Shown: piece by piece, positions 2,903 to 23,100 of the stretch
How the letters are laid out: every line of letters begins with the position of its first letter
Numbering within the stretch: the stretch's first letter is position 1
The notes under the pieces: generated by a model
The model's input: only the letters and a program-made list of their open reading frames with translations
The model's database searches: none
Told to the model about the DNA's origin: nothing
Source of the DNA: Candidatus Daviesbacteria bacterium
Lineage (GTDB): Bacteria; Patescibacteriota; Microgenomatia; Daviesbacterales; UBA10151
Assembly: GCA_016187025.1 (NCBI GenBank)
Contig: JACPKM010000001.1
Span: 448,055-512,054 of the forward strand
Direction: 5' to 3'
Length of the DNA stretch: 64,000 nucleotides
Made by a program: the position numbers and the translations under genes

Positions 2903-2906
2903 AAAT

Positions 2907-7302: not shown

Positions 7303-9492
7303 ATGGCAGTTAATCATTTGTCTGTTTTTTTCCCTGCTTATAATGAGGAAAAAAATATCTTATCCACAGTTACAAAAGCAGTTGAGGTTTTAAAGAAGCT
7401 AAATTTAAAAGATTTTGAGGTTATAGTGGTGGACGATGGGTCCAAAGATAACACTGCCCAGGTGGTTTATGAATTATCTAAAAAAGATAAAAGAATAAGG
7501 CTTATTGCCCATCAGACAAACAAAGGTTATGGCCATGCTTTAAAAACAGGTTTTTCTCAAGCAAGGTTTGAATGGGTAGCCTTTTCAGATTCTGATGGTC
7601 AGTTTGATTTTTCTGATATCACCAAGCTTTTAGAAGAATCTGATTCAGCAGATTTTGTTTTAGGTTACAGGATAAAAAGGGCAGACCCTTTTTTAAGAAA
7701 ATTATTTACCTTTGGCTGGAAAACGATAGCAGGAGTACTTTTTGGTCTAAAAGTCATAGACTATTCGTGTGGTTTTAAATTAATCAAAAAACAAGCTTTT
7801 GAGTCTTGTTTACCTCTTGAGTCTGAGGAAAAAGTTACACAAATAGAGCTTTTGGTCAAAGCGATGAAAAAAGGCTACCATTTTGCAGAAGTTGGAGTAA
7901 ACCATTATTCACGAAAATTTGGTAATCCAACAGGCGCTAATATTAAGGTAGTTTTAAAAAGCTTACTTGATATCCTAAAGCTTTGGTGGAATTTGGAAGA
8001 CAAGAAACCGCTCTTTCTTACTCTTTTGGCAATCTTGCTGCTTGCTGCTTTTTTACGCTTTTACAGACTGAATGAATATATGACCTTTTTGGGGGATGAA
8101 GGAAGAGATATGTTGATTATGAAAAAGATTCTGGTTGAGCTCGATTTGCCCTTAATCGGTCCGTCTACTTCGGTTGGGAATATTTATCTGGGGCCACTTT
8201 ATTACTACATGATGGCAATCCCCTCTTTTTTATTCTGGATGAATCCTACTGCTTCAGCAGGAATGAATGCACTGATCGGGGTTTTGACGGTTTACCTTAT
8301 TTATTATTTGGCAAAAATTTGGTTTGGAAGAATAAGTGCACTTACTGTAGCCTTTTTATATGCAATTAGTCCGATTGCAATAATTTACTCCCGCTCCTCA
8401 TGGAATCCAAACCCAGCTCCACTTTTTACCTTGCTTGGTATTCTTGGTTTTTTTAATGCACATACAACAAGAAATTTTAAATGGTTAATACTCACCGGGG
8501 TTTCATTTGCAGCAGCAGCTCAAATGCATTATCTTGCTTTGATCTTAATTCCTATTGCAGGAGTCATTTGGGCAACAGAGGCACTAAACAGAAAATCTTC
8601 AAAAAAAAGCTTTTGGTTAGGAACAATTCTTGGAATAATTTCCTATTTGGCTTTAATGACTCCCCTGGTTGTATTTGATCTGAAACATAACTTTTTAAAT
8701 TTCAGAGCAATGAAAGAGCTTTTTGTAGTAAGTGATGCCATAAAGGCGGAGTCAGCTGTAAACTTTGGTAAGTTTTTTGATTTAGTAACCCAAAAGCTTG
8801 TTAATCGCTACATAGTTGCAGGAAACGAGACATTAACTTTTGTCCTGCTTTTTATGATTTTAGTTCCTATTATTTGGATGTTTGTTAAAGCTTTGAAACA
8901 AAAATCCCTAGATTGGCCAAACTTTATTCTAGGGGTGTGGTTGATAGTGGGGCTAATTGGTTTAACCTTTTATCAAAAATCAATTTATGATCATTATTTA
9001 GGTTTTATAAGCCCGGCAGCATACCTTCTGGTTGCATCATTTATCAGTATGTATTTAGTCAAATTTAAAAATGCGAACAAACTAGTCAAGTCCGTTCCTT
9101 TAATTGTTCTAATCATAATGCTGGCTTTGGTAAATTTTCAAAAAAGTCCTTTAAAAGATGTTCCCAATAACCAGCTTAAAAGAACTCAAGAAATTGCAAA
9201 ATATATTATAAAGCAGTCTGAAAACAGACCTTTCAATTTTGCCCTTTTAGCAGAAAGAAATTATGATTCAGCGTATCAGTTTTATTTGTGGATTTATGGA
9301 CACAGACCCAAACAAGTCCCCTTTGATATTACAGATCAGTTGTTTGTTGTGTGTGAGGATTCGGTTTGTGATCCGGTATATAGCCCGAAATACGAGATAG
9401 CAGGTTATGGTTGGTCAAAAGTGGACGAGGTAAAAGAGGTTAGCGGAGTAAAGGTTTATAAGCTTAGCCCTAATCCTAGCGGAAAACCTTAA
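7303..9492 (+). CDS. Bifunctional protein: N-terminal Dpm1-like GT2 domain fused to a C-terminal GT39/83 (PMT/ArnT-like) GT-C membrane domain. The tracked ORF starts at TTG 7294; ATG 7303 is a likely start.
   Basis: The GT2 motifs are VFFPAYNEEKN...VVDDGSKDNT and FSDSDGQ. After about 230 aa there are more than 10 TM helices with a loop-1 motif FLGDEGRD (the DE motif of GT39/83). Confidence 0.65.
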   Translation: MAVNHLSVFFPAYNEEKNILSTVTKAVEVLKKLNLKDFEVIVVDDGSKDNTAQVVYELSKKDKRIRLIAHQTNKGYGHALKTGFSQARFEWVAFSDSDGQFDFSDITKLLEESDSADFVLGYRIKRADPFLRKLFTFGWKTIAGVLFGLKVIDYSCGFKLIKKQAFESCLPLESEEKVTQIELLVKAMKKGYHFAEVGVNHYSRKFGNPTGANIKVVLKSLLDILKLWWNLEDKKPLFLTLLAILLLAAFLRFYRLNEYMTFLGDEGRDMLIMKKILVELDLPLIGPSTSVGNIYLGPLYYYMMAIPSFLFWMNPTASAGMNALIGVLTVYLIYYLAKIWFGRISALTVAFLYAISPIAIIYSRSSWNPNPAPLFTLLGILGFFNAHTTRNFKWLILTGVSFAAAAQMHYLALILIPIAGVIWATEALNRKSSKKSFWLGTILGIISYLALMTPLVVFDLKHNFLNFRAMKELFVVSDAIKAESAVNFGKFFDLVTQKLVNRYIVAGNETLTFVLLFMILVPIIWMFVKALKQKSLDWPNFILGVWLIVGLIGLTFYQKSIYDHYLGFISPAAYLLVASFISMYLVKFKNANKLVKSVPLIVLIIMLALVNFQKSPLKDVPNNQLKRTQEIAKYIIKQSENRPFNFALLAERNYDSAYQFYLWIYGHRPKQVPFDITDQLFVVCEDSVCDPVYSPKYEIAGYGWSKVDEVKEVSGVKVYKLSPNPSGKP

Positions 9493-9559: not shown

Positions 9560-10303
9560 ATGGCAAATCCCAAACTTTCAATAATTTTTCCCTCTTATAA
9601 TGAAGAAAAAAATATCCGCAATGGAATTTTAGAAACTGTAGAAAATTACTTAAAAATGGTAGATTATCCATTCGAGGCGCTTTTTGTAGATGATGGTTCC
9701 AAGGATCAAACCGCTACCCTATTAAAAGAATTTGTAAAAAATAATAAAAATTACCGCTTGATTGAAAATAGCCATGGAGGGAAAGCTATAACTGTAATTA
9801 CCGGTATGTTAGAAGCCAAGGGGGAAGTGGCACTCTTTTCTGATATGGATCAGGCTACTCCTTTAAAAGAGATAGAAAAGTTTTTTCCAAGATTTGACGA
9901 AGGGTATGATATTGTGATTGGATCGAGGCATGGTAGAAAAGGCGCGCCTTTTATAAGAAAACTATCTGCCTGGGGTTTTTCAGTTTTGAGATTAATTATT
10001 TTGGGATTACCGTTTAAAGATACCCAATGTGGATTTAAAGCATTCAACAAATCATCCATTGAAAAACTTTTCCCAAAAATAAAACATGAATGGGGAGTAT
10101 TGCATACAAAAGGTGGGGCAGTGAATGCTGGTTTTGATGTGGAGCTACTATATCTTGCTAAAAAATATGGATTTAAGATTGCGGAGGTAGAGGTGGAATG
10201 GAATTATGTTGACACAGAGCGAGTGCAGGTTATCAAAGATGCCGCAGCTGCAATTTATGATATGCTAAGAATTAGAATAAACGATTTTTCTGGTAAATAT
10301 TAA
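9560..10303 (+). CDS. GT2 glycosyltransferase, Dpm1/polyprenyl-phosphate-sugar synthase-like
   Basis: The motifs are LSIIFPSYNEEKN...FVDDGSKDQT and FSDMDQA. The protein is 247 aa and soluble. Confidence 0.75.
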   Translation: MANPKLSIIFPSYNEEKNIRNGILETVENYLKMVDYPFEALFVDDGSKDQTATLLKEFVKNNKNYRLIENSHGGKAITVITGMLEAKGEVALFSDMDQATPLKEIEKFFPRFDEGYDIVIGSRHGRKGAPFIRKLSAWGFSVLRLIILGLPFKDTQCGFKAFNKSSIEKLFPKIKHEWGVLHTKGGAVNAGFDVELLYLAKKYGFKIAEVEVEWNYVDTERVQVIKDAAAAIYDMLRIRINDFSGKY

Positions 10304-10425: not shown

Positions 10426-11922
10426 GTGAAGTTGGTTTTCAAATACAAGACTGAAATCTTTGTTTTAGCAATACTTATTATCCTATATTTTGCCTTACGT
10501 TTGCCTAATTTAACTCTACAACCTATATTTGCGGATGAGGCAATCTATATCCGCTGGGCCCAGGTAATGAAATCAGAGCCTACTTTAAGGTTTGTCTCTC
10601 TTTCTGATGGGAAAACCCCATTTTTTATGTGGATGATGGTGCCGATGTTTAAAATCTTTGATGACCCACTTTTTGCCGGAAGATTCCTATCAGTTATTGC
10701 TGGACTCGGTACTCTCTTGGGAGTCTTTTTCCTGACCAGGAAAGTGTTTGGTAAACAAGCCGGTTACTGGTCGTCTCTAATATATGTTGTTACTCCATAT
10801 ACAGTGTTTTTTGACAGGATGGCTTTGGTTGATTCTATGCTTGCAGCATTTACTATTTGGTCTGTGTATTTTGCAATATGGCTTCTTCAATCGCAGCGAC
10901 TAGACTTGGCGATGATTCTGGGGTATTTTCTTGGAGGAGGGCTGCTTGTCAAAACTCCGGGAATGTTTAATCTTCTTGTTCTTCCTGTTAGCATCCTCGG
11001 GTTTAAATTTCAAAAGTCTTCAGGTAGTTTAGTAAAACTTTTGGTCTTTTGGAGTATTTCCTTAATTATTGGATTGGCAATTTATAATATTCTAAGGCTT
11101 GGCCCGGGGTTTGAACAGCTTTCTGCTAGAAACCAAGATTATGTTTTTTCTCCTAGTGAGCTTGTCGGAAGGCCGCTTGATCCATTCATACCACACTTAA
11201 GAGATCTCGCTGATTGGTACCCAAAACTATTAACCTGGTCTGGACTTACTTTCATATTTATTGGACTTTTTAAGTCACTAGTATCCAAGAATCGTTTAGG
11301 TTGGGTAGTGGTGGCTTGGGCCTTGGTACCGTTAATGATTCAACTGGCGTTTCTGAAAACTTTTACTGCAAGATATTTACTTTCATCAATTCCGCTGCTG
11401 ATAACTATAGGGGGTTTTGGTTTTGTTTATTTGAGTCAAAAGCTCAAACTATCATCGCTTTTTTCAATAGCTTTAGGTTTAATATTAATTCTGACTCAGA
11501 GTCTATACTTTGATTTAACCTTAATCAGTGATCCAGCTAAGGCTCCACTTCCAAGAGCAGAAAGAAGAGGCTATTTAGAAGACTGGACTGCAGGATATGG
11601 CCTCAAAGATATAGCACAATTTTTAGATGAAAAAAGTAAAGAAGATAAAGTGGTTGTTGGTACAGAAGGATTTTTTGGAACTTTGCCTGATGGACTATAT
11701 ATTTACTTGGACAAATCAGAGGTTGTCGTAATAGGGGGTAAATCTGCAATTTCAGAACAAATCAGGCAAACTGCAAAAGATAACTTGACTTATTTTGTTG
11801 GTAATAAAAAAAGAATTGAAGGTAACTTAAAAGATGTCGAGCTGGTGAGAGAATATCTAAAAGCAAAACCTTTGGATAATTCCCCACAGGATGCAATACA
11901 GCTTTATAAGGTAAATCCATAG
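10426..11922 (+). CDS. GT39/GT83-family (PMT/ArnT-like) GT-C membrane glycosyltransferase. GTG start.
   Basis: The protein is 498 aa with more than 10 TM helices. The loop-1 motif is IFADEAIYIRWA (DE motif). Confidence 0.65.
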   Translation: MKLVFKYKTEIFVLAILIILYFALRLPNLTLQPIFADEAIYIRWAQVMKSEPTLRFVSLSDGKTPFFMWMMVPMFKIFDDPLFAGRFLSVIAGLGTLLGVFFLTRKVFGKQAGYWSSLIYVVTPYTVFFDRMALVDSMLAAFTIWSVYFAIWLLQSQRLDLAMILGYFLGGGLLVKTPGMFNLLVLPVSILGFKFQKSSGSLVKLLVFWSISLIIGLAIYNILRLGPGFEQLSARNQDYVFSPSELVGRPLDPFIPHLRDLADWYPKLLTWSGLTFIFIGLFKSLVSKNRLGWVVVAWALVPLMIQLAFLKTFTARYLLSSIPLLITIGGFGFVYLSQKLKLSSLFSIALGLILILTQSLYFDLTLISDPAKAPLPRAERRGYLEDWTAGYGLKDIAQFLDEKSKEDKVVVGTEGFFGTLPDGLYIYLDKSEVVVIGGKSAISEQIRQTAKDNLTYFVGNKKRIEGNLKDVELVREYLKAKPLDNSPQDAIQLYKVNP

Positions 11923-11936
11923 ATTCAATAAATAAA

Positions 11937-13646
11937 ATGCATGTTTTAAATCTTTTTAAAAAGACCATTATTAGATTTCCGTGGATTTTAGTAATTCTGT
12001 TTACGATCCCAAGTTTTATTGCCCTTTTAAGGCCTGGCTTTTTTCCAATGCAAGATGATTTGCAGGTGTTTAGATTGCACCAAATGGATAAATGCATCAA
12101 GGATTTACAGATTCCCTGCCGGTGGATTCCTGACATGGGGTATCAGTACGGCTATCCTCAATTTAACTTCTATAATCCAAGTGTGTTTTATCTAGGGGAG
12201 GTATTTCATTTGGCAGGTTTTCAATTTATTGACTCAGTAAAAATACTTTTTATACTAGGCCTTGTTTTATCAGCTATTTCAATGTTTCTTTTGCTGAGAT
12301 CTTTTGTAGATAATTTCCCTGCGCTGGTTGGATCGCTACTTTATACATATGCTCCATTTAAGGCAGCCCAAGCCTATGTCCGCGGATCATTAAATGAGCT
12401 TTGGAGTTTTGTTTTCTTTCCCTTAATATTTCTTTTTGCCTACCAATTAATAAAAACCAACAAAAGCAAATACATAATATATCTAGCCTCTTCAGTTGGG
12501 TTAATGCTTCTTACCCATAATTTAATGTCTGTTGTAATTGCCCCCTTGGCAGCAGTTTGGATTCTTAACTGGTTAGTTTTGGAAAAAGGCTGGAGAGTTT
12601 TACCTAAGCTTTTTGTAAGCTTGCTTTTGGGGCTAGGCTTGTCAGCCTTTTTTGTTTTACCAGTTATATTTGAAGGTAAATATGTTCACTTGGAAACACT
12701 GATTGGGGGATACTTTGATTATAGACAACACTTTGTAAATATTTACCAGCTATTTTTATCTAACTATTTTGGATACGGTTCATCAGTTTTTGGAAACAAT
12801 GATGAGGTGTCTTTATCAGTTGGAATTGTGCAATGGATTAGCGCAGCTATTACTTTGACTCTTGCATTGATCAATTTTAAAAAGAAAAAAAAGCTTTCAA
12901 TTACTGTAATTATAGTATTTCTCCTATCAGTTTTTACAATATTTTTGATGCATCAGCGCTCAAGTTTTATTTGGGAAAGATTAGAGTTTTTCAAATATTT
13001 CCAGTTCCCTTGGAGGTTTCTGGCGGGTAGTACGTTTTTATTATCGATTCTTGGAGCAATGGGTATAAGCTTTATAACAAATAAAAGATTGTCAGTTATT
13101 TACGGAGGACTAATTACAGTTTCTTTGGGCATTCTTTATTTAAGCTTTTTTAAACCGGTAAGTTGGAATAATGTGTCTGATCAAGATAAATTTAGCGGAC
13201 AATCTTGGGAAAAGCAGTTAACAATAAGCATTTTTGACTACTTACCAATTTATGCCAAGCTACCTCCTAATAAGAAAGCGCCAGAGCGACCAGAAGTATT
13301 AGAAGGTGATGTTAAGGTTATAAGCTATTTTAAAGGCAGTAATTACCAAGAAGGTGAAGTAGAAGTGGTAGGTAATGAAGCAGTTATCAGAGTTCCTTTG
13401 TTTGATTTTCCTGGGATGAAAGTTACATCAAACAATAAACAAATACCCCACTGGCATAATGATTGCAGGTTTGAAGAATACTGTTTGGGTTTGATAACTT
13501 TTAAATTACCTGAAGGAAATCATAAAATAAAAGCTGAGCTAGGAGATACATTAATCAGAACAATAGGGAACACCATTTCCCTATTTTCATTTTTGACTAT
13601 AATTTCTTTCCTAACCAAAAGAGTATATGAGAAAACAACTAATTAA
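11937..13646 (+). CDS. Tandem paralog 1 of an uncharacterized GT-C-like membrane protein family (HHDD / QIPCRW / QFPWRFL motifs)
   Basis: There are about 12 TM helices, then a beta-rich domain of about 150 aa, then a C-terminal TM anchor. It shares these motifs with the next three ORFs: PGFFPMQDDLQV, DKCIKDLQIPCRWIPDMGYQYGYPQFNFYN, YFQFPWRFL. Confidence 0.5.
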   Translation: MHVLNLFKKTIIRFPWILVILFTIPSFIALLRPGFFPMQDDLQVFRLHQMDKCIKDLQIPCRWIPDMGYQYGYPQFNFYNPSVFYLGEVFHLAGFQFIDSVKILFILGLVLSAISMFLLLRSFVDNFPALVGSLLYTYAPFKAAQAYVRGSLNELWSFVFFPLIFLFAYQLIKTNKSKYIIYLASSVGLMLLTHNLMSVVIAPLAAVWILNWLVLEKGWRVLPKLFVSLLLGLGLSAFFVLPVIFEGKYVHLETLIGGYFDYRQHFVNIYQLFLSNYFGYGSSVFGNNDEVSLSVGIVQWISAAITLTLALINFKKKKKLSITVIIVFLLSVFTIFLMHQRSSFIWERLEFFKYFQFPWRFLAGSTFLLSILGAMGISFITNKRLSVIYGGLITVSLGILYLSFFKPVSWNNVSDQDKFSGQSWEKQLTISIFDYLPIYAKLPPNKKAPERPEVLEGDVKVISYFKGSNYQEGEVEVVGNEAVIRVPLFDFPGMKVTSNNKQIPHWHNDCRFEEYCLGLITFKLPEGNHKIKAELGDTLIRTIGNTISLFSFLTIISFLTKRVYEKTTN

Positions 13647-15297
13647 TAATTGGCAGGTTTTGACAATAATTGCTCTTTCAATGCTTATTGTTTGGCCGCT
13701 ATTTTTACCTGGGTATTTTACTCATCATGATGATTTACAAGTCATGAGGATATTTGAAATGAGAAAGTGTTTAGAGGACTTACAAATTCCTTGTAGATGG
13801 GTACCTGATATGGGTTATGGTAATGGTTTTCCGCTTTTTAATTATTACAGTGTCCTTCCTTATTATTTAGGGGCATTTTTTAGCTTTATTTTTGGTTACT
13901 TAATTTCAGCAAAAATACTATTTTTAGTTCCTTTGCTACTGGGTGGAGTATCAATGTATCTGTTTGCCAAGGAGATTTTTAACAAAGAGGTAGGGTTGGC
14001 AGTTGGGATAATTTATTCTTTTGCTCCGTACAGGGCAGTAGATAGCTATGTCAGAGGGGCTGTGGCAGAAAGCTTTGCACTGGCTATAATCCCTTTAGTA
14101 TTTTATTTTTTCTCAAGACTTATTAAAGAAAAAGGGTATTTAAACTTTTTAGGAGCGACACTTTCTCTTACTGCTTTTCTTATGTCTCATAATATAATGA
14201 CACTTTTTTTCCTGCCTATTTTACTTGTATGGATTCTAATATTAATTTTCCACAATAATGAACAGAGTTTTTATTCGAAGAAAAACTTTAAGTTTGTATT
14301 TCTTAGTTTAATACTAAGTATTGGTCTTTCTTCATTTTTTCTTCTTCCAGCCTTTCTAGAAAAAGATTTAGTTGAAATTGATACTTTAACCCGGTTTGAT
14401 CTAAACTTTAGGGTCCATTTCATTTCTATTGGACAGTTATTTGAAAGGTCGTGGGGGTATGGTGCATCAGTTTTAGGGCCAAATGATTCTATTTCATTTC
14501 AAATTGGCCTGCCTCTCTGGATATTGTCTGCTGTTTCAATTATCTGGTTTGTCCTTAACTTGACTAAAAGAAAAAATTTACTTGTCTATACCCTATTTTA
14601 CTTAAGTTTTATTGGATCAGTTTTTATGATGCATAACAAATCAGCTTTTATTTGGGAAAAGATTTCTCTTCTGCATTTTGCACAGTTTCCGTGGAGGTTT
14701 TTATCAATTACTATTTTTTCAGGAGCCATTCTTTCAGGGTTTGCTTTAACTATTTTTAAAGGAAGAGTCCAAAAAGTTATACTTTTTACAATTATTGTTT
14801 TGACAGTCTTTCTAAATTGGGGCTATTTTAAACCAAATAGTTTTTATCCTACCTCTGATCAAAAGAAGTTATCTGGTAAGGAATGGGAGAATCAACAAAA
14901 GGCTGCGATTTTTGATTATTTACCAAAGGGAGCAATAGATCCGCAAGAGGCAGCACCTGATAAACCGATTGTTTTATCAGGAGAAGTGAAGATAGAAAAT
15001 TTTCAAAAAAAGAGCAATAGATGGGAATTTATGGCTGAGGTAAACAAGGAGTCTAAGCTTGAAATGCCTGTTTTTGATTTTCCGGATTGGGAAGTTTTTA
15101 TAGACAGTAAAAAAATAAACCATGAAAAAAGCCCGCTTTTAAAAAGAGTAGCCTTCAGCGTTCCAGAAGGGGAGCATAAGATAAAAGGATACCTAAAAGA
15201 TACACCGGTAAGAAGTTTTGCCAATGCAACAACCCTTTTGTCGCTGATTGTTTTACTATTTTTAGTTTATGGAAAAGGTCGAAAAGTTTTTAATTAA
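13627..15297 (+). CDS. Tandem paralog 2 of the same family
   Basis: The motifs are PGYFTHHDDLQVMRIFEMRKCLEDLQIPCRWVPDMGYGNGFPLFNYY and FAQFPWRFL. It overlaps paralog 1 by about 20 nt. Confidence 0.5.
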   Translation: MRKQLINNWQVLTIIALSMLIVWPLFLPGYFTHHDDLQVMRIFEMRKCLEDLQIPCRWVPDMGYGNGFPLFNYYSVLPYYLGAFFSFIFGYLISAKILFLVPLLLGGVSMYLFAKEIFNKEVGLAVGIIYSFAPYRAVDSYVRGAVAESFALAIIPLVFYFFSRLIKEKGYLNFLGATLSLTAFLMSHNIMTLFFLPILLVWILILIFHNNEQSFYSKKNFKFVFLSLILSIGLSSFFLLPAFLEKDLVEIDTLTRFDLNFRVHFISIGQLFERSWGYGASVLGPNDSISFQIGLPLWILSAVSIIWFVLNLTKRKNLLVYTLFYLSFIGSVFMMHNKSAFIWEKISLLHFAQFPWRFLSITIFSGAILSGFALTIFKGRVQKVILFTIIVLTVFLNWGYFKPNSFYPTSDQKKLSGKEWENQQKAAIFDYLPKGAIDPQEAAPDKPIVLSGEVKIENFQKKSNRWEFMAEVNKESKLEMPVFDFPDWEVFIDSKKINHEKSPLLKRVAFSVPEGEHKIKGYLKDTPVRSFANATTLLSLIVLLFLVYGKGRKVFN

Positions 15298-16945
15298 ATA
15301 TAGATTTTTTGTTATTTCGGTACTTCTTGCTCCGGCTGTATGGGCTTTGTTCGTTCCTGGCTACTACGGTGCCTCAGATGATATTCATATAGCATGGCTT
15401 TATGAAATGGACCAAGTAATAAAGCTAGGACAATTTCCTCCAAGGTATGTTCCGGATTTAAGCTTTGGGTTTGGTTATCCTTTGTTTTCTTTTGTTTTTC
15501 CGCTACCGTTTTACATAGCAGAGATTGTTCATCTTATTTCTAGACTAAGCTTTGTTGATAGTGTAAAGTCTGTTTTTTTCCTCAGTGTTCCCCTTTCGTT
15601 TTTTACAATGTATTTGCTTCTTAAAAGGTTTTCCTCTCAGCTTTTATCAATTGCTGGAGCGCTTGTTTATGTCTACACACCTTACAGAGCAACTGATCTT
15701 TATGTTAGGGGAGCTATAGGGGAATTGTTTTCTTTTGCAGTTTTGCCAATTGTTGCCCTATCAGTAATTAAGTTATCAGGTTATAAGTTTAACTTAAAAT
15801 GGATTGGAATTGGCGGATTATCACTTAGTGCACTGATTCTTACTCATAATATTACAGCGTATATGTTTTACCCAACCGTTATTTTGTTATGGTTGGTGTT
15901 ATTGCTAGCAAGCAGAAGAGACCTTGCAAAAAAAGTATTGCAGTTTTTCTTGATGAATTTACTAGGTTTGGCGGGAAGTATTTACTTTTGGCTTCCGGCG
16001 ATAATTGAAAGTAAATTATTTAAGTACGATACCGTATTTAATTTCACCGATCATTTTCCGACCCTTAAACAGTTATTCACACCTTATTTTGGATACGGAG
16101 CATCAGTACCTGGGCCTTTTGATGGATTATCTTTTTTCATAGGATTTATAAATATATTATTAGTAATCACTGCGTTTTTATCAGTTTTCTTATACAGAAA
16201 AAAATATTCAAAGACCGAGTTTGCTTTTTTTGGTTGGCTGATGGTAATACTTTTAATGACTGTTTTTATGATGAATTTTAGATCCACTTTTGTTTGGGAA
16301 AATGTCCCGCTGATTCCCTATTTCCAGTTTCCCTGGAGGTTTTTAATTTTAACCACCTTTATCACCCCACTTTTTATTATCTTTCTTGAGAAAAGCGAGT
16401 ATAAAAACATACTGGCGATTCTTATTATAATTTCTGTAGTTTCACTCAATGGAGTCTATTTTAGACCTCATGATTTTTTGGGAAGAGAAGACAGTTATTT
16501 TTTAGATAGATACATTCCTTATCCCAAGGCAAGTGAGGAGTACAAAAAAACTCAAGAGGAGTATTTGCGTTTACCAAAAGATTTAATTAAAAGACCAGAC
16601 CAAAATTACCCTCTAACATTTCCTGTTACTGAGCAAATTATTCAGATTAATCCATTTAACAGATTAGCAGGTGAGACTAAGGTTAAAGCCGATAAAGACT
16701 TTATTCTATATTTTAACAAGTACTATTATCCGGGATGGCAGGTAAAAATCGATAAGCAAAAGACTGAGATATTTTCCAGTCCTCCTTTTGGGCAAGTTAG
16801 TGTTAAAATACCCTCTGGCGAGCATTTAGTGGAGATTTTATTTAAAGAAACCGTACTTAGGCAGTCGTTGAATCTTGTTTCTTTGCTGGCTATCATACTT
16901 TCCCTATCGCTTACATTTCAGACTAGACTCAAAGAAAATGAATAA
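15269..16945 (+). CDS. Tandem paralog 3 of the same family. It is diverged and has lost the Cys pair.
   Basis: The motifs are PGYYGASDDIHIAWLYEMDQVIKLGQFPPRYVPDLSFGFGYPLFSF and YFQFPWRFL. Its start overlaps paralog 2's stop. Confidence 0.5.
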   Translation: MEKVEKFLIKYRFFVISVLLAPAVWALFVPGYYGASDDIHIAWLYEMDQVIKLGQFPPRYVPDLSFGFGYPLFSFVFPLPFYIAEIVHLISRLSFVDSVKSVFFLSVPLSFFTMYLLLKRFSSQLLSIAGALVYVYTPYRATDLYVRGAIGELFSFAVLPIVALSVIKLSGYKFNLKWIGIGGLSLSALILTHNITAYMFYPTVILLWLVLLLASRRDLAKKVLQFFLMNLLGLAGSIYFWLPAIIESKLFKYDTVFNFTDHFPTLKQLFTPYFGYGASVPGPFDGLSFFIGFINILLVITAFLSVFLYRKKYSKTEFAFFGWLMVILLMTVFMMNFRSTFVWENVPLIPYFQFPWRFLILTTFITPLFIIFLEKSEYKNILAILIIISVVSLNGVYFRPHDFLGREDSYFLDRYIPYPKASEEYKKTQEEYLRLPKDLIKRPDQNYPLTFPVTEQIIQINPFNRLAGETKVKADKDFILYFNKYYYPGWQVKIDKQKTEIFSSPPFGQVSVKIPSGEHLVEILFKETVLRQSLNLVSLLAIILSLSLTFQTRLKENE

Positions 16946-18650
16946 CTTAATTAAGCTGGTAAAAAAGCCTGTAGCAATAACTTTTATATTATCAATTGCT
17001 CTACTGTGGCCGCTTTTTGTCGCACCTTACTTTACCCATCATGATGATGTGCAAGTTATTAGGCTATATGAGATGGACAAATGCATTAAAGATTTACAAA
17101 TCCCCTGTCGTTGGGTACCAGATTTGGGAGGACAATACGGCTATCCTCTTTTTAACTATTATGCACCTTTACCTTACTACGTCGGAGAAATATTTTTCTT
17201 ACTAACAAATAATTTGATTTTATCAATGAAGGTAATGTTTGTTATACCATTTATTGCCTCATTTATTTTCATGTATTTACTGGCAAAAAAGTTTTGGGGT
17301 GAGTTAGGTGCAAGTGTATCGGCCCTTTTTTACTCTTATGCTCCCTATCATGCACTTGATTTTTATGTCAGGGGAGCAATGGGAGAGTTATGGGCACTGA
17401 TGGCATTCCCAGCAATATTTTATTCCCTTTTTAAGCTATTTGAGAAAAAATCTATTGGTAATATCCTTTTTTTAACACTATCTTTCTCTGTACTTTTACT
17501 CTCTCATAATTTGTCTACAATGATATTTATACCCTTTGTGGCAATATTTACTATTTTTTTGTATCTGTTCAAAAGAGATAATTTTTTTGTTTTATCGATT
17601 CTTGCATCTTTTACTCTCGCAATTGTTTTATCATCTTTTTACTTTATACCTGTAATAGCTGAGAAAGACTTTGTTCATGTTGATACAACAACCTATGGAT
17701 ATTTTCATTATACTGAGCACTTTAAAGGATTTAAAAAGCTATTTTTGGATAGAAGCTGGGGTTGGGGACAATCAGTTAGGGAAGTGCCAGGAGGAGAAAG
17801 AGATGGGATATCTTTTCAAATTGGTTGGGTGCATGTTCTTGCTTGGGTAATTTCTCTATTTGTTGCCAAAAGATTGTGGAGCAGTAAAACTAACAAGCTG
17901 GCTGTTGCTACAATAATTTTAACCACTATTGGAATTATGTTTGCTATTTTTATGGTGAATCCTAGATCGGAGCCTATATGGAAGGCTATACCTCCTTTGG
18001 AGTTTTTGCAGTTTCCCTGGAGGTTTTTGATTTTAATAACATTTTTTATCTCATTTCTGTCAGGAAGTATCTTTTTGCTGACTCGCAGCAAAAAGATATG
18101 GTTACTTTTAATGGTAGCTGTTGCACTTTTTAACTTTAGCTATTTCAGGCCTGAAAAATTTATCTACACCAGTAACCAAGAGCTTTTGCAAGGAAGTAAT
18201 TGGAACAAGCAAATTATGCGTTCCATATTTGATTTTTTGCCAATTTATGCAAAAGAGCCTCCCGCCACACTTGCTGAATCTAACTACCAAATTTTAACCG
18301 GGGAAGCAAGTATAAAAGATTTTAATAAAGGCACAAATTGGTTTAACTTTAATGCCGATGTTAAAACGCATACTATTCTCAGGCTTTCTCAGTATTATTT
18401 TCCGGAATGGATTATTAAAATAGATGGACAGGTGGCCAATATAGAGTATAAGAATAATACTTTAGGTTTAATGACTCTTATTTTGGGAGAGGGAGAGTAC
18501 AGAATAGAAGGTAGGTTATTTGATACTCCTGTTCGTATACTATCAAACTGGCTAAGCTTAATCGGGTTTGTTGTAATATTGATTCTATTTCCCCTACAAT
18601 TTAAACGGATTCAAATTTGGATTATGTATTATTTAAAAAGAGCAGGATAA
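16938..18650 (+). CDS. Tandem paralog 4 of the same family. The likely start is ATG 16938 (MNNLIKLV); the tracked ORF starts at 16875.
   Basis: The motifs are APYFTHHDDVQVIRLYEMDKCIKDLQIPCRWVPDLGGQYGYPLFNYY and FLQFPWRFL. It has an ATGAATAA overlap with paralog 3's stop. Confidence 0.5.
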   Translation: MNNLIKLVKKPVAITFILSIALLWPLFVAPYFTHHDDVQVIRLYEMDKCIKDLQIPCRWVPDLGGQYGYPLFNYYAPLPYYVGEIFFLLTNNLILSMKVMFVIPFIASFIFMYLLAKKFWGELGASVSALFYSYAPYHALDFYVRGAMGELWALMAFPAIFYSLFKLFEKKSIGNILFLTLSFSVLLLSHNLSTMIFIPFVAIFTIFLYLFKRDNFFVLSILASFTLAIVLSSFYFIPVIAEKDFVHVDTTTYGYFHYTEHFKGFKKLFLDRSWGWGQSVREVPGGERDGISFQIGWVHVLAWVISLFVAKRLWSSKTNKLAVATIILTTIGIMFAIFMVNPRSEPIWKAIPPLEFLQFPWRFLILITFFISFLSGSIFLLTRSKKIWLLLMVAVALFNFSYFRPEKFIYTSNQELLQGSNWNKQIMRSIFDFLPIYAKEPPATLAESNYQILTGEASIKDFNKGTNWFNFNADVKTHTILRLSQYYFPEWIIKIDGQVANIEYKNNTLGLMTLILGEGEYRIEGRLFDTPVRILSNWLSLIGFVVILILFPLQFKRIQIWIMYYLKRAG

Positions 18651-18651
18651 T

Positions 18652-20136
18652 ATGTCATTTAACAGCAGCGATGGTGAAATAACTTACGAAAAGATAAAAG
18701 AAAGAGCCATTAAAGGTGTGGCTTTTTTGACCGGACGCAATTTTTTGCTTCAAGCTATTACCCAGATTTCATTTTTTCTTCTAACTATTTTTCTAAGCCC
18801 TAGTCAGTTTGGTGTATTTTTCTTAGTATCTACAGTAATTAACTTCTTTGCTTACTTTTCTGATATTGGCTTGGCAGCAGCTTTAATACAAAGAAAAGAT
18901 AAAGTTGCACAAGATGACCTTAAAACAGTTTTTACAGTGCAGCAGGTTTTAGTCTTACTGACAATTGCCATAATATTTATACTGACTCCTTTTTTTCAGA
19001 ACTGGTACAAACTTTCTCAAGAGGGAGTTTATCTTATTTGGGCTCTTGCCATATCTTTGCTTTTTTCTTCTTTGAAGACAATCCCTACTGTACTGCTAGA
19101 AAGACAACTTAGTTTTGGTAAATCAGTTCTACCTCAGATCGTTGAAACAATTGCATTTTATGCAACTGCTGTTGTGTTAGCTTTTAAAGGGTTTGGCGTT
19201 ACCAGTTTTACAGTAGCTGTTTTACTAAGAGGGATTTCAGGACTGTTATCTATATATCTTATACAACCTTGGCAACCAGGATTTGCCATTTCCAAAAAAT
19301 CTTTGCAAAGTCTTCTTAGATTTGGTGTACCTTATCAGCTGAATACTTTCCTGGCTTTAGTTAAAGATGATGGTCTGATCATGTTTTTGGGCGGAGTTTT
19401 GGGGACCTCAGGGATGGGGTTTTTAGGATGGGCTCAAAAATGGGGTTTTGCCCCTTTAAGATTTTTTATGGATCAAATTATCAAAGTCACATTTCCTGCA
19501 TTTTCCAGGCTTCAACATGATAAAGAAAAGTTATCAAATGCAGTGTCAAAGTCCATCTTGTTTGTTTCTTTAATGGTTTTTCCATCAGTTGTGGGTTTGG
19601 TAGTTTTGGCACCTCTTTTAACAACAGTTATCCCCAAGTATGAAAAATGGCAGCCTGCATTAGTAGCACTTTCTCTTTTTGGTTTTAATGCAATGTGGGC
19701 GGCAGTAACCACCCCTTTAACAAATACTTTAAATGCAATTGGAAAGATTCAGTTAACCTTTAGACTGATGATGATGTGGACAATATTAACATGGGTTTTT
19801 ATTCCGCTTCTGGCAATTAATTATGGTATTAACGGCGCAGCTTTAGGTTTTGCTTTAGTAGGTTTGAGTTCTGTGATAGCAATAGCTGTTGCATTAAAAT
19901 ATGTAGAAATTGATTTAACAAAATCAGTTATCAAACCCCTGATTTCATCTTTGGTCATGGGTATAGTTTTGTTTTATGTTTCTAGCATGCTTTCGCCTAC
20001 ACTGTTGAGTGTATTTATTCTACTTGCTTTAGGGATTGTTATTTATATATTGCAGATCTTACTTTTTCTAAGAGACGAGGTTGCACAGGGCCTTAGACAG
20101 CTAATTAATATTATTAAAGTTAAGGAAGTTAGTTGA
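18652..20136 (+). CDS. Wzx-type oligosaccharide flippase (MOP/PST family)
   Basis: The protein is 494 aa with about 14 TM helices. The N-terminus is typical of polysaccharide-biosynthesis-protein flippases (AIKGVAFLTGRNFLLQAITQISFFLLTIFLSPSQFGVFFLVSTVINFFAYFSDIGL). Confidence 0.7.
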   Translation: MSFNSSDGEITYEKIKERAIKGVAFLTGRNFLLQAITQISFFLLTIFLSPSQFGVFFLVSTVINFFAYFSDIGLAAALIQRKDKVAQDDLKTVFTVQQVLVLLTIAIIFILTPFFQNWYKLSQEGVYLIWALAISLLFSSLKTIPTVLLERQLSFGKSVLPQIVETIAFYATAVVLAFKGFGVTSFTVAVLLRGISGLLSIYLIQPWQPGFAISKKSLQSLLRFGVPYQLNTFLALVKDDGLIMFLGGVLGTSGMGFLGWAQKWGFAPLRFFMDQIIKVTFPAFSRLQHDKEKLSNAVSKSILFVSLMVFPSVVGLVVLAPLLTTVIPKYEKWQPALVALSLFGFNAMWAAVTTPLTNTLNAIGKIQLTFRLMMMWTILTWVFIPLLAINYGINGAALGFALVGLSSVIAIAVALKYVEIDLTKSVIKPLISSLVMGIVLFYVSSMLSPTLLSVFILLALGIVIYILQILLFLRDEVAQGLRQLINIIKVKEVS

Positions 20137-23100
20137 AAGTGAAAAAGATTTTAGTATTAATTGTTGCCTTCTTAGTATTTGTCTCTCAAGTTTCAGTTGT
20201 CTTTGCTGCGGAGAACTCGTTTGTAAATATTGTAAACCCAATAAGAGGCAAAGATTTCTGGGATACTAAAAACCAAGATGTAGATACAGTAGTTAAGGGC
20301 CAAGTTGAAATATTAAATAAATATGATGCTCCCGCTACTTGGCTAATAAGGCCTGATGCACTAAATGATTCTAGAATCAAAGAGATATTAAATAAAAGAA
20401 AAACAGATGAAACGGGATTGTTTTTAGAGATTACCCCAACTTTAACTGATAAAGCTCAAGTCAGATATAGGCAAAGTAAGGATTGGCATAGTCCAGGAAG
20501 CGCTTTTTTAACAGGGTATGAACAAGAAGAGAGGAAAAAAATAATTGACACAGCTTTTGAAAGCTTTAAGCAGGTCTTCAATTATTATCCTAAATCAGTA
20601 GGAGCCTGGTGGATTGATGCATACTCACTGTCTTATATGTCTGATAAGTATCAGATCACTGCAGCCTTAATTGTTGCAGATCAATACTCAACTGATAACT
20701 ATCAAATATGGGGACAATATTGGGCTACACCTTATTATCCTTCAATTAAAAATGCTTTAATCCCAGCACAGCAAACGAGCGAAAAAATCCCGGTTGTTTT
20801 AACTCAGTGGGCAGCCCGGGATCCAATTAACGGATATGGAAAAGGGGTTGAGGAAAGTACATATAGTGTGCAGCTCAATGATTATATAGATTTTCATGAA
20901 CTGGGAATAGATTATTTCGCCTCACTTGTGGATATTTATACCAAACCTGGCTTTGACCAGTTTGGTCAAATCGTAGTTGGTTTGGAAAATACCTATTCAT
21001 GGGAAAAATATAAAATTGAGTATGACAAACAGATTAAGCTGCTTTCAGAAAAACAAAAGCAGGGGCAGTTTAGATTAGCTAAAATGACTGAGTTTTCTGA
21101 CTGGTACCAGTTTTCTTATCCCGAGATTTCTCCAATGCATATTATTTCAGCCAATGATCCTTTGGGTAGTGATAAAAAGGCTGTCTGGTTTATGAATCCA
21201 TATTACCGGGTAGGATGGTTTTATCAGAATCCTGGAAGCAGCATACAAGATATAAGACAATACATTTCCTCCTCAGAAGAGATTTGTTACTTAAGAGGAT
21301 GTGATAAGCTAAATTTTGCAACCTATACTACCCGGGTTTTGGATTATGTGACCTATGGTCACAACTGGTTGCTTGATCAAGGGCGGATTAAAGGTTTTAC
21401 CATCGGTAAAAATAACGGAAACTATACTTTAAGCTATACAAATGAAGCAGGGGATAAAAGAAATATTGAATTCCTTCCTAGAGATATTTTGCTAGATAGT
21501 AATGTTTATACAATAGATAAGGCTATATTAGAAATTACATCTTTAAAATCCTTTGATACAAAAAAGGACCAGTCGCATTTATTTAAACAGTCGCAAATAA
21601 AAGATGTATTAAACTTTTCACTAGTATTAAAGTTTGTTGTGTTTCTAGGGTTTGTTGTAATTGCACTTTTGATTCCCGGTTTAGTGTTTACAAGGAACAT
21701 AAAAGAATTGGATCTTCCCTTAAGAGTTTTTGTTTCTCTTACCTCTGGGTTAGTGGTGTTTACCATGGTTGGATATTTACTAGGGATGACTAAGCTGTAT
21801 TGGCTCAGCTTTGTTTATATACTGGCTTTTTTGATTCTTTTCCTTAAGTTTCGGATCTATAACGAATTTGCCAATGTAAAACCAGTCTTTAATAAGCTAA
21901 ACTTTGCCATTTTTTTAACTGTTATATTAGGAATCATTTTCCAAATAGCTCCTGTATTTAAAAGCGGTATCGTGTTTAAAGATGGAATGGGTTTCTGGGG
22001 TCCCAATGGCCATGATGGGGTATGGCATCTGGCGCTGATTAATCAGCTAATAAAAAACATTCCTCCGGAAAATCCTGTCTTTTCTGGAGAAGTGCTAAAA
22101 AATTATCACTTCTTTTACGATCTGTTAGTGGCCCTAACAGCCAAGTTAACTACACTATCTGTTAGCGATCTTCTTTTCAGGTTTTTCCCAATTATTTTTT
22201 CTTTACTTCTTGGAATAGGTACATATTATCTATTTAAGTTAATGTTCCAAAACTATTACAACAATAATCATTGGAAACTAGGGGCAATATTTTCACTACT
22301 ATTTGTTTACTTTGCCGGTAGTTTTGGTTGGATTGTAGAGTATTTTAAAAATAAAAGCTTAGGAGGCGAATCTGACTTTTGGATCAACCAACCTGTTTCC
22401 TTTAACCTTAATCCCCCGTTTGCAATTTCTCTAATAATATTTATAGCCTTTATAATCTTACTTAACTTTTTAGCCAAAGGCAGAGCCAAGCTGATTCTAC
22501 TGCTTTCTGTGCTTTCTGCCAGCTTAGTAGGCTTTAAGGCATATGGAGCTATTTTGATATTTTTGTCTTTGCTGCCCTTTGCCCTTTTTAGTATATTCAC
22601 AAGAAAAAGCTTTAATCTGTTTGCAGTTTTGGTATTTGGGTTGATAATCGGATTTTTAATATTTGCTTTAGGCTATAAATCTACCCAAGCCCTTATTGGC
22701 GCATCCTCCCAATCACTTTTTATTTTCTCTCCCTTCTGGTTTATTCACTCGATGCTTGATTCGCCAGATAGAGTTGGTCTAACCAGAATCACTTTAATGA
22801 GAATGGTAGGCTATGAGACAAGCAATTTATTAAAAATCATCACCTCAGAACTAATAGGTCTTGTTGTTTTTGTAGTTGGAAACCTGGGGTTGAGGTTTTT
22901 AGGTCTCCTTGTATTCTTTAGAAAATCATTATTTAAAAACTTCTTTTTTTCCGAAGGAAAACAGTCCAACGGTTTTTCCCGCGCAGCGGGACAGTCCAAC
23001 GGTTTATTTACTTATTCTATGTTTTTAGGATTAGTATCATTCATAATTCCTACTTTCTTTATTCAAACAGGTAATCCTTGGAATACCATTCAGTTTTCCT

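Follow-up and report, generated by a model that had tools for sequence, protein, structure and literature searches.

Four tandem PF10131 paralogs with predicted GT-C folds in a polysaccharide-like locus of Candidatus Daviesbacteria

Described GT-C systems and their relation to the c1–c4 array

YfhO has 13 transmembrane (TM) helices with a 389-aa loop between the last two, and a conserved DXD could not be found in it (PMC5836110). Members of the YfhO family transfer GlcNAc to LTA in B. subtilis and S. aureus and act on WTA in Listeria, and the streptococcal proteins PgtC2 and PgfM1 take part in protein O-glycosylation (PMC12041528). The four proteins described here (c1–c4) are encoded in tandem in a 64,000-nucleotide stretch of DNA, referred to here as the window. 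As with YfhO, they are GT-C proteins that go together with a polyprenyl-phosphate-sugar synthase of the GT2 type (for c1–c4 by locus), and in their models a large extracellular domain separates the final two TM helices. However, they are ~300 aa shorter with an external domain of 125 aa, and they have a well-conserved Asp motif in the first loop, unlike YfhO, for which no conserved DXD was found.

The mycobacterial embCAB genes form a tandem operon, and EmbA and EmbB form a heterodimer, as PDB entry titles also indicate. Like c1–c4, the embC-embA-embB products are tandem GT-C paralogs using a polyprenyl-phosphate sugar (proposed for c1–c4) and have C-terminal extracytoplasmic carbohydrate-binding domains; Emb structures are among the Foldseek matches of c2 and c3. 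Unlike c1–c4, the Emb proteins are ~1,050–1,100 aa long, have 15 TM helices and carry two CBMs, sequence similarity between the two groups is not detectable, and a complex of c1–c4 is putative.

The fold class with its seven-helix N-terminal module is common to c1–c4 and to AglB/PglB/STT3, AftA, ArnT, ALG12 and AftD. Shared features with the solved GT-C(A) enzymes include an acidic residue where the first external loop begins, Arg/His residues directed at the lipid phosphate, and a C-terminal module that varies, although the likeness is at the level of fold (TM-score 0.36–0.47, 10–15% identity) and c1–c4 contain neither WWDYG, DxD/DxxK nor other motifs of the solved families. The OST enzymes and ArnT are not known to have a last TM helix that follows the external domain, as c1–c4 do. 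The PMT_2/GT39 systems (GtlB, GacL, CsdB/D/F) show weak homology to c1–c4 over TM3–TM7 and the same genomic logic of a GT2, a flippase and a GT-C enzyme (PMC8035078), but with a different first-loop motif and a different C-terminal domain.

Gene array, family and relatives

The array consists of four genes:

11937–13646, + strand: c1, ORF for a GT-C fold paralog of 569 aa with signature M[QH]DD and C-x7-C.
13627–15297, + strand: c2, GT-C fold paralog of 556 aa with HHDD and C-x7-C.
15269–16945, + strand: c3, divergent paralog of 558 aa with ASDD, without the cysteine pair.
16938–18650, + strand: c4, GT-C fold paralog of 570 aa from ATG with HHDD and C-x7-C.

These are consecutive, overlapping, rightwards-reading ORFs at the positions given in an earlier note on this DNA. 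The overlaps are 20, 29 and 8 nt (c1/c2, c2/c3 and c3/c4 respectively), with differing reading frames, and a gap of 14 nt separates c1 from the end of the upstream gene. A length of 591 aa for c4, the upper end of the ~560–590 aa given previously, counts from the first in-frame TTG at 16875; the ATG at 16938, which is the start in NCBI record MBI2600835, gives the shorter product. Pairwise identities are 33–41% over the full length (c1 and c2, 38%) with 74 invariant columns, and by alignment the four are true paralogs, with c2 nearest the family consensus. At the DNA level only the conserved motifs are similar, recurring every ~1.66–1.68 kb, so there has been neither recent duplication nor gene conversion.

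Profile searches place c2 (53.4 bits) and c4 (39.2 bits) in Pfam family PF10131 (gathering cut-off 26.4 bits, whole-protein score), as they do 55 of 56 aligned relatives, among which 16/56 also match PMT_2 and 7/56 STT3. The two remaining copies fall below the cut-off, c1 with 19.2 bits and c3 with no match in the Pfam search, and are joined to c2 and c4 because of their full-length identity and the family HMM. The model begins at c2 residue 71 and thus omits TM1 and the H-D-D...R loop, and c2 matches only profile positions 1–342 of 621, so that its C-terminal domain differs from that of PF10131. The family had been left without a name in the earlier note, but it is already in Pfam as 'PTPS_related', a member of the GT-C clan related to YfhO, and c1–c4 add members to it; 'PTPS_related' is also the NCBI name of several orthologs. 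PF10131 is listed in clan CL0111, and the sole paper found on the family calls its function unknown (PMC7801869); no reported biochemical activity or solved structure of a member was found in the libraries searched. The YfhO model (PF09586, cut-off 28.5 bits) has no match in c1–c4 at E≤1; among relatives, P0121 (63.5 bits), P0010 and P0026 do match it.

Two other assignments were considered and rejected. Although NCBI names c1 a 'glycosyltransferase family 39 protein', a CAZy GT39/PMT identity is not indicated, since PMT_2 (PF13231) scores 22.2 bits in c1 (E 1.8e-4) and 15.7 bits in c4, with all four copies under the cut-off of 26.1, and PF02366 (PMT) has no match in c1–c4. Wzy_C (PF04932) matches c4 alone (15.8 bits, E 0.013; cut-off 31.7), and an O-antigen ligase identity was set aside because of this score and because WaaL and Wzy do not appear among the fold matches.

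All four copies have 1:1 orthologs, with identities of 60–74% (in related locus L001, 67% for c1 and 60% for c3). A dN/dS comparison had been suggested earlier as a check on the copies, and against the orthologs pN (0.16–0.27) is far below pS (~0.75–0.8) for each of them. Among the Microgenomates the order c1-c2-c3 occurs in 28 loci and c1-c2-c3-c4 in eight, c4 being present only in some relatives, and this conserved order indicates that the duplication is ancient; single-copy loci account for 15 of 84, many of them ending at contig ends. Several relatives are fusions: P0121 is a natural c2+c3 fusion in a single 1093-aa ORF found on three contigs, P0122, P0137 and P0154 contain two to four domains per protein, and P0127, P0134, P0136 and P0211 have an N-terminal GT2 domain joined to the family member.

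Predicted fold, topology and conserved residues

The AF2 models of c2 (pLDDT 90.5, pTM 0.92) and c3 (pLDDT 81, pTM 0.87) both contain 12 TM helices, arranged as TM1–7 followed by TM8–12 plus an external domain. GT-C(A) enzymes are defined as polytopic membrane proteins in which the first seven TM helices form a conserved N-terminal module and a variable module comes next, and their first external loop contains two alpha-helices with the catalytic base in the first (PMC13503287). Both models have the seven-helix module and a variable module, and the position of D35, three residues ahead of the loop helix in the c2 model, corresponds to the expected acidic residue in or at that helix. Only one of the two published loop helices is predicted (c2 38–50, c3 40–52), and the rest of external loop 1 is of low confidence (c2 51–72, coil, pLDDT 54–74; c3, pLDDT 39–63).

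Every Foldseek match of probability 1.0 to the c2 and c3 models is a GT-C(A) enzyme. For c2 these PDB entries are AglB, PglB, AftA, STT3 and ArnT, and c3 matches AftA, AglB, ArnT and ALG12; the high-probability matches together span AglB (3.5e-5), PglB, AftA, STT3, ArnT, ALG12, AftD, DPY19 and Emb. Profile and fold searches thus return glycosyltransferases; a placement among transporters, which the earlier note had named as fatal to its reading, did not result. It is very improbable that c1–c4 are instead Wzy/WaaL-like polymerases or ligases, lipid-linked-sugar flippases or transporters. The weak Wzy_C match of c4, the presence of some MFS transporters low in the Foldseek lists, and the speculation that YfhO flips its own donor (PMC5836110) point that way, but the Wzy_C score is well under its cut-off and confined to one copy, the MFS matches have probabilities of at most 0.12 and TM-scores of ~0.12, and WaaL, Wzy and SEDS structures are missing from the best 50 Foldseek matches, the top ranks of which are all GT-C.

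The predicted topology has both termini in the cytoplasm and the acidic loop outside. Lys and Arg account for 31.4% of residues in the predicted cytoplasmic loops against 8.9% in the external ones, the positive-inside rule holding in 123 of 123 sequences. The N-terminal GT2 fusions also require an N-in arrangement, the GT2 domain being presumed cytoplasmic because of its nucleotide-sugar donors. Both lines of evidence agree with the earlier placement of the DD loop outside the cytoplasm. The C-terminal part of c2 contains two elements:

14827–15204, + strand: c2 external domain, residues 401–526, two short helices and a beta-sandwich (AF2 secondary structure).
15205–15270, + strand: c2 TM12, C-terminal anchor returning the chain to the cytoplasm (AF2 helix 527–548).

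The beta-rich external domain followed by a TM helix is as described before, although its size is ~125 aa rather than 150. The models place the beta-sandwich between the last two helices, the YfhO arrangement, and in a local Foldseek search that of c2 resembles glycoside hydrolase beta-sandwich domains (probability 0.96–0.99, E-values 0.2–0.3). The tail after TM12 is basic (GKGRKVFN), and the return of TM12 to the cytoplasm allows the c2+c3 fusion in P0121.

Three motifs on the predicted outer face have equivalents in all four copies:

13708–13809, + strand: c2 first external loop motif PGYFTHHDDLQVMRIFEMRKCLEDLQIPCRWVPD, with D35-D36 at 13729–13734; equivalents at 12033–12134 (c1), 15356–15457 (c3) and 17022–17123 (c4).
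14047–14058, + strand: c2 YVRG(xxxE) in external loop 2/start of TM4 (R143, E148); equivalents at 12375–12386 (c1), 15701–15712 (c3) and 17364–17375 (c4).
14683–14703, + strand: c2 QFPWRFL at the external end of TM10; equivalents at 13002–13022 (c1), 16325–16345 (c3) and 18009–18029 (c4).

Conservation was counted over 270 domain instances, with c2 numbering. R57 is present in all 270, D35 in 265, H34 in 236 and D36 in 205; R143 and E148 occur in 267 each, H188 in 268, E245 in 265, and Q353, P355, W356 and R357 in 269 each. The family-wide invariant residues D35, R57, R143, E148, H188, E245 and QFPWR357 are kept by c1–c4. QFPWRFL is found in every copy as previously reported, but the HHDD attributed to the array is present in c2 and c4 only, with MQDD in c1 and ASDD in c3. 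HHDD is a subtype signature, the family-wide core being H-D-[DN] plus the invariant Arg. The pair C48/C56 is complete in 203 domain instances and missing altogether in 67; c1, c2 and c4 have the C-x7-C and c3 does not (V...P), in agreement with the earlier description. The proposal made there of a GT-C-type family with an acidic pair just after TM1 is borne out by the PF10131 scores, the Foldseek matches and the outside position of the loop, and the catalytic role of the pair is putative.

Copy c3 has diverged furthest in the first loop (Q38H, R41W, C56P) and also has H336N, and its external domain contains a c3-specific insert modelled with low confidence, but it retains the equivalents of R57, R143, E148, H188, E245 and R357. 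The c3 type is present in 48 related loci with the invariant residues conserved and groups with many family members without the cysteine pair. Judged by these comparisons it is an old, separate orthologous lineage that lacks the pair and not a product of recent decay. The loss of cysteines after duplication suggested previously is therefore probably the reverse of what happened, or at least very old, the c3 lineage being conserved across Microgenomates. We give almost no credence to c3 being a degenerating duplicate about to become a pseudogene, as might be read from the absent Pfam match, the lowest ortholog identity (60%), the missing His/Cys signature and the low-confidence insert. Its frame is intact, pN is 0.27 against a pS of 0.78, its external-loop identity within type (0.67–0.76) equals that of the other types, its wide occurrence with invariant residues kept and its confident GT-C fold model speak against decay, and c3 genes broken by frameshift or truncation were not the rule among the relatives.

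The order c1-c2-c3 does not vary over 36 loci, the gene overlaps are compatible with translational coupling, c2-type and c3-type domains are joined in the 1093-aa ORF, and two to four domains occur in one protein in P0122, P0137 and P0154. Together with the divergent first loop of c3, this would fit an obligate hetero-oligomer of c1, c2 and c3 resembling EmbA-EmbB or Pmt1-Pmt2, with c3, devoid of the Cys and His residues, serving acceptor handling or as a scaffold and perhaps not catalysing. Such an arrangement is unlikely, as order and fusions are equally expected for sequentially acting enzymes, single-copy loci exist (15/84, many at contig ends), and nothing marks c3 as inactive because it keeps every family-invariant residue, Asp included. 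It is equally doubtful that the conserved triad is a Microgenomates-specific (CPR) hetero-oligomeric GT-C machine that builds or polymerises, on the outer side of the membrane, a wall glycopolymer particular to this lineage. Three ancient paralogs would then be physically coupled, sometimes fused into one polypeptide, with an extracytoplasmic C-x7-C disulfide stabilising two lineages and not the third, and the activity of PF10131 would found a new GT-C family in CAZy.

Genomic context and proposed function

Genes flanking the array include the following:

4893–6077, + strand: GT2 with a GtrA/DPMS-type TM domain, candidate donor synthase/flippase module (PF00535 81 bits, PF04138 65 bits).
7294–9492, + strand: GT2 + PMT_2 (GT-C) fusion protein.
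9560–10303, + strand: GT2 of polyprenyl-phosphate-sugar synthase type, candidate donor synthase (Glycos_transf_2 90 bits).
10426–11922, + strand: PMT_2-type GT-C enzyme directly upstream of c1 (PMT_2 59 bits).
18652–20136, + strand: MOP/Wzx-type flippase, 2 nt past the c4 stop (Polysacc_synt_3 173 bits).

The PMT_2 gene upstream of c1 aligns with the c1–c4 family profile (hhalign E 2.7e-5) and is syntenic in L001, and the flippase gene (MOP flippase family 141 bits) is syntenic in L001–L003. The best NCBIfam matches of the 9560–10303 GT2 are PgfS (84 bits, cut-off 500 bits), ArnC and dolichyl-phosphate hexose transferase, all far under their equivalog cut-offs. The locus looks like one for a polysaccharide, with rmlABCD, two MOP flippases and numerous genes of the GT2 and GT4 types. 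Its GT2 synthase-type genes and GtrA/Wzx-type flippase genes, of putative specificities, match published multi-component transmembrane glycosylation systems (PMC8035078; PMC11127046).

Fold, topology, residue conservation, synteny and fusions are direct results of the models and comparisons; catalysis, donor, acceptor and how c1–c4 share the work are what we infer. The four proteins are probably paralogous GT-C membrane glycosyltransferases of PF10131 with a YfhO-like architecture, using polyprenyl-phosphate-sugar donors and a cell-surface acceptor. Most likely they transfer sugars from lipid-linked donors to the cell surface, donor sugar and acceptor being suggested by the gene neighbourhood; the evidence for a lipid-phosphate-sugar is circumstantial and comprises the GT2 fusions, the adjacent GT2 genes and flippases, and the invariant outer-face Arg and His residues. 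A cytoplasmic GT2 enzyme would load sugar onto polyprenyl phosphate. The lipid-linked sugar would be flipped by the GtrA-type module or by the Wzx-type MOP flippase next to c4, assigned putatively from its neighbourhood, and each paralog would then transfer the sugar to a cell-surface acceptor. The active site would lie on the outer face, formed by the TM1 loop (Asp35 after His34, Arg57) with Arg143/Glu148, His188, Glu245 and the QFPWR357 turn. Asp35 may act as the base and Arg/His residues may hold the leaving lipid phosphate, and the external beta-sandwich may help to bind the acceptor.

PMTs in actinobacteria carry out extracytoplasmic protein O-glycosylation, and the acceptor of c1–c4 could likewise be protein, the targets being Ser/Thr-rich regions of proteins at the surface or in the membrane (S-layer, pilins, lipoproteins). 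YfhO-family GT-C enzymes glycosylate proteins together with a GT2, GtrB or PgfS (PMC12041528), PgfS is the best match of the adjacent GT2, and c1 bears a PMT-type GT39 name. A protein acceptor is possible but on balance improbable: the PgfS match is far under its cut-off, the locus is polysaccharide-like, the external domain weakly resembles glycoside hydrolase beta-sandwiches and not MIR or TPR modules, and the window showed no gene for a candidate Ser/Thr-rich substrate.

Under the preferred reading as GT-C enzymes of cell-surface glycosylation, c1–c4 most likely act on the same envelope polymer, encoded by the 64-kb glycan island. Since the paralogs are ancient and their first loops are type-specific, the most likely differences between them lie in the donor, the linkage or the acceptor position. 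Residues specific to a type reach their highest density in external loop 1, with 9.4 per 100 aa compared to 0.9–3.5 in the TM segments.

The paralog array and its surroundings

The four tandem membrane-protein paralogs, c1–c4, were described from sequence alone in an earlier note as overlapping genes, and with minor corrections this holds: the ORFs occupy 11937–18650 and their products are 33–41% identical in pairwise comparisons, with 74 invariant columns in the alignment of the four copies.

ORFs of the array.
11937–13646 (+): c1, 569 aa
13627–15297 (+): c2, 556 aa
15269–16945 (+): c3, 558 aa
16875–18650 (+): c4, open from a TTG at 16875 (591 aa); the ATG at 16938 (570 aa), as in the GenBank record, is the more likely start

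Successive ORFs overlap by 20, 29 and 8 nt in differing frames, 14 nt separate c1 from the end of the upstream gene, and the downstream gene begins 2 nt past the c4 stop. Promoter-like and terminator-like sites are not above the level of shuffled sequence (72 vs 65.6 and 16 vs 13.8, respectively), and together with the overlaps and tight spacing this makes an operon with translational coupling plausible. DNA similarity among the copies is restricted to conserved motifs (period ~1.67 kb, 60–81% identity), on which grounds recent duplication or gene conversion is rejected. A 124-aa antisense ORF (11762–12136, –) that spans the junction between the PMT_2 gene and c1 is probably spurious because it lies opposite the conserved c1 start. 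The exact c1–c4 proteins are present in GenBank (MBI2600832–35; Candidatus Daviesbacteria MAG, Microgenomates, CPR; 512-kb contig), c1 as a 'glycosyltransferase family 39 protein' and c2–c4 as 'hypothetical protein'; with three of the four genes 'hypothetical', the present outcome is a refined annotation and not a new kind of system.

All 64 kb of the window belong to one glycan-biosynthesis island with nearly all genes on the + strand, and the three-to-four-gene module adjoins candidate donor synthases and a flippase.

Features of the island around the array.
247–3782: rmlABCD
within the window: GDP-mannose dehydratase-type enzyme
4893–6077: GT2 fused to a GtrA/DPMS transmembrane (TM) domain
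7294–9492: GT2 and PMT_2 fusion
9560–10303: small GT2 of the polyprenyl-phosphate-sugar synthase type
10426–11922: PMT_2 GT-C enzyme
18652–20136: MOP/Wzx flippase
further downstream: more PMT_2, GT87/PIG-U-like GT-C, many GT2 and GT4, a second MOP flippase, epimerases and methyltransferases

The window totals are at least 11 GT-C-type genes (four PF10131, seven PMT_2 with the GT2 fusion counted among them, plus three PIG-U/GT87-like), ~12 GT2, three GT4 and two MOP flippases; there are also several epimerases and methyltransferases, C-methyltransferases among them. An 831-aa ORF (52607–55102, +) is an unusual three-domain fusion of NAD-dependent epimerase/dehydratase, methyltransferase and GT2. 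The 1190-aa protein adjoining the flippase (20133–23705, +) has no Pfam match and a 1168-aa syntenic counterpart in the closest genome, L001; beyond a TM helix at about residue 600 lies 'GFWGPNGHDGVWHLALINQLIKN', which resembles the H-D loop of the c1–c4 family. The protein is possibly one more divergent GT-C-like enzyme; aligning the family profile to it with hhalign gave no significant match (probability 0.8%), and none was obtained for the 550-aa product of the ORF at 37326–38978 (+). This ORF and those at 59722–61719 (+), 61753–63663 (+) and 27188–29143 (–) encode proteins of 550–665 aa with no Pfam family above cut-off, the best match among the four being DUF6798 (E 0.003), for the last of them. 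A related island, L084, likewise encodes proteins without a Pfam match (657 and 658 aa) beside a GT87 gene.

Family membership, fold and orientation

Pfam searches match c2 (53.4 bits) and c4 (39.2 bits) to PF10131 'PTPS_related' (cut-off 26.4), with c1 at 19.2 bits and no Pfam match for c3; weak PMT_2 matches occur alongside. PF10131 is a member of the Pfam GT-C clan CL0111 (PMC7801869), in keeping with the GT-C-like reading proposed from the sequence. The sole paper found that names PF10131 states its function as unknown (PMC7801869), and no functional study was found in the literature searched on PF10131/PTPS_related or on CPR/Microgenomates glycosyltransferases. NCBIfam has no model for the family, profile tests for YfhO, PMT/GT39 (NCBI's label for c1) and Wzy_C were failed by all four copies, and sequence searches of the PDB with profiles of 4 and of 123 sequences returned nothing significant. 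The assignments that hold are the GT-C fold class for all four copies and PF10131 for c2 and c4 alone; novelty is limited, c1–c4 being new members of this known family of putative glycosyltransferases.

The PF10131 model starts at c2 residue 71, past TM1 and the first loop, and therefore omits the best-conserved polar motif and most informative loop of the family; c2 residues 1–70 (window 13627–13836), including the near-invariant Asp35 and invariant Arg57 (c2 numbering throughout), lie outside it. A model extended to cover them would probably pick up c1 and c3. The family is large: counted as clusters at 50% identity, a search with a four-copy profile yields 18,087 representatives at E<=1e-3, of which 5,549 reach E<=1e-30. 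With c2 as query there are >2,000 close relatives, the best 72% identical, and those that are named come mostly from Daviesbacteria and other Microgenomates.

AlphaFold2 gave a confident model for c2 (pLDDT 90.5, pTM 0.92; 56-sequence alignment) and a usable one for c3 (pLDDT 81.1, pTM 0.87). In Foldseek searches of the PDB, matches of probability 1.0 are to GT-C enzymes only: AglB (3.5e-5), PglB, AftA, STT3, ArnT, ALG12, AftD, DPY19 and Emb for c2, and AftA, AglB, ArnT, ALG12, AftD, ALG3 and AftB for c3. Profile search and structure comparison thus both agree with the earlier note, and c1–c4 are likely to be GT-C glycosyltransferases acting outside the membrane. A non-transferase role is poorly supported.

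Segments of the c2 model (12 TM helices).
residues 9–26: TM1
residues 27–72: external loop 1, with a helix at 38–50
residues 73–244: TM2–7
residues 245–294: external loop
residues 295–400: TM8–11
residues 401–526: external domain of two short helices and a beta-sandwich
residues 527–548: TM12

Lysine and arginine make up 31.4% of predicted cytoplasmic loops vs 8.9% of external loops among 123 diverse members, and the bias toward cytoplasmic loops is present in all 123. A GT2 domain is fused at the N-terminus of several relatives (P0127, P0134, P0136 and P0211), and as GT2 enzymes use nucleotide-sugar donors this domain is presumed cytoplasmic, so that the N-terminus must lie inside and loop 1 outside. 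Both lines support an N-in/C-in orientation, in which the DD motif is not cytoplasmic. Within the external domain, c3 has a charged insert (DRYIPYPKASEEYKKTQEEY...; c3 residues 431–466, window 16559–16666) that is modelled at pLDDT <50 and corresponds to a gap in the other three copies.

The candidate active site and the cysteine pair

Conservation counts are out of 270 aligned domain instances. On the outer face, the near-invariant residues are R57 and P134 (270 each), H188 (268), R143 and E148 (267 each), D35 and E245 (265 each), and Q353, P355, W356 and R357 (269 each); H34 (236) and D36 (205) vary more, and the exact HHDD string occurs in only 122. This makes H-D-[DN]...P-x-R-W with YVRGxxxE, SHN and QFPWR the family core, and not HHDD as such. 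As first noted, QFPWRFL is in all four copies and the C-x7-C pair in c1, c2 and c4 but not in c3; HHDD, first given as a shared motif with copy 3 as the exception, is limited to c2 and c4, with MQDD in c1 and ASDD in c3. R57, R143, E148, H188, E245 and R357 are kept in all four types (a type being the ortholog group of each copy).

First-loop signatures of the four types.
c1: M[QH]DD, cysteine pair
c2: HHDD, cysteine pair
c3: [AV]SDD, no cysteines
c4: HHDD, cysteine pair

In GT-C(A) enzymes of known structure the catalytic base lies in the first helix of external loop 1, and Arg/His residues of the external loops bind the donor phosphate (PMC13503287). D35 is three residues ahead of the first helix of this loop in the c2 model; the c2 and c3 models have one helix there, compared with two in the defined GT-C(A) feature. 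In the likeliest mechanism, each paralog would be an extracytoplasmic, inverting-type GT-C transferase in which D35 would serve as the base and R57, R143, H188 and R357 would hold the lipid phosphate, transferring sugar from a flipped polyprenyl-phosphate-sugar to an envelope acceptor, with the external beta-sandwich contributing to acceptor binding. In c2 this sandwich has weak local Foldseek matches to glycoside-hydrolase beta-sandwich domains. Fold, topology, residue conservation, synteny and fusions are results of the analysis; catalysis, donor, acceptor and the division of labour among the copies are inferred. D35, R57, R143, E148, H188 and R357 are concrete targets for heterologous expression and mutagenesis.

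The paralogs are predicted to work like YfhO, GtlB, ArnT or Emb enzymes. As in YfhO, a large external domain separates the two final TM helices, but the paralogs are about 300 aa shorter than YfhO; their tandem arrangement recalls embCAB. A protein acceptor, as for the YfhO-family enzymes PgtC2 and PgfM1, is a rather unlikely rival reading.

Cysteines C48 and C56 occur together in 203 of the 270 instances and are both missing from 67, with no instance of a single one, which would fit an extracytoplasmic disulfide. In a neighbour-joining tree of 123 members the pattern needs only ~2 state changes, and the covariation evidence for a disulfide is therefore weak. Sequences with the cysteines (c1, c2 and c4 types) make up a single clade of 63, and c3 sits among those without them. 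The earlier note has both cysteines lost in c3; as the tree keeps c3 out of the cysteine-bearing clade, it gives no sign of a recent loss. With its midpoint root the tree fits equally a gain of the pair in the c1/c2/c4 common ancestor and a single loss long ago.

Conservation and probable specialisation of the module

In L001 (108-kb contig) all four genes recur in unchanged order, flanked by the same PMT_2 gene, MOP flippase and large unknown protein. Orthologs correspond one to one at 67, 74, 60 and 68% identity for c1–c4 (31–41% off-diagonal). Synonymous sites are saturated (pS 0.69–0.76 between paralogs, 0.70–0.82 between closest orthologs), so no meaningful dN/dS can be given for c1–c4; pN against the L001 orthologs is 0.16–0.27, far below pS.

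With one genome scanned per species, 563 relatives were recovered. The best 80 loci among these, many of which are truncated by contig ends, come almost without exception from Microgenomates (Daviesbacteria, Woesebacteria, Shapirobacteria, Collierbacteria and Blackburnbacteria) and have tandem runs of three copies in 32, four in 10, two in 15 and one in 15. The typed order is c1-c2-c3 in 28 of them and c1-c2-c3-c4 in eight. Residues that are constant within a type and different between types number 9.4 per 100 aa in external loop 1 and 0.9–3.5 per 100 aa in TM segments, as would be expected of old paralogs specialised in substrate or linkage. By pN, c3 is the fastest copy, yet it is no faster than neighbouring genes; the type residues do not show the pattern of a decaying copy, and decay of c3 is contradicted by the evidence.

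Two to four family domains occur in one polypeptide in P0121, P0122, P0137 and P0154, the last two being proteins of 3329 and 1670 aa with four matching stretches each. P0121 (L084 8001–11282; 1093 aa), recovered on three contigs, joins a c2-type to a c3-type domain with almost no linker and directly follows a c1-type gene; such a fusion is topologically possible because TM12 brings the chain back to the cytoplasm. The fusion is consistent with the paralogs being physically associated, and in a rival reading c1-c2-c3 would form an obligate complex with c3 as a specialised subunit; we regard this as improbable and prefer a division of labour in which each paralog would be a transferase in its own right. 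P0256 combines a family domain with a TMEM260-like GT-C (O-mannosyltransferase) module and TPR repeats.

The envelope chemistry of CPR/Patescibacteria is almost unknown and the organisms are mostly uncultured. A GT-C family of about 5,500 clusters (50% identity, E<1e-30) is here given a candidate active site, lying beyond the Pfam model, and a predicted topology; a c1-c2-c3(-c4) module is conserved in Microgenomates, and fusions provide evidence of the donor pathway. A demonstrated activity could make PF10131 the basis of a new CAZy family and help to account for surface decoration in Microgenomates. Microgenomates-type arrays 50–72% identical to that of the window also occur in dozens of 'binchicken' TPA MAGs (L004, L007, L009, L010 and others) titled 'uncultured Gammaproteobacteria bacterium', titles that look like placeholder or wrong taxonomy.
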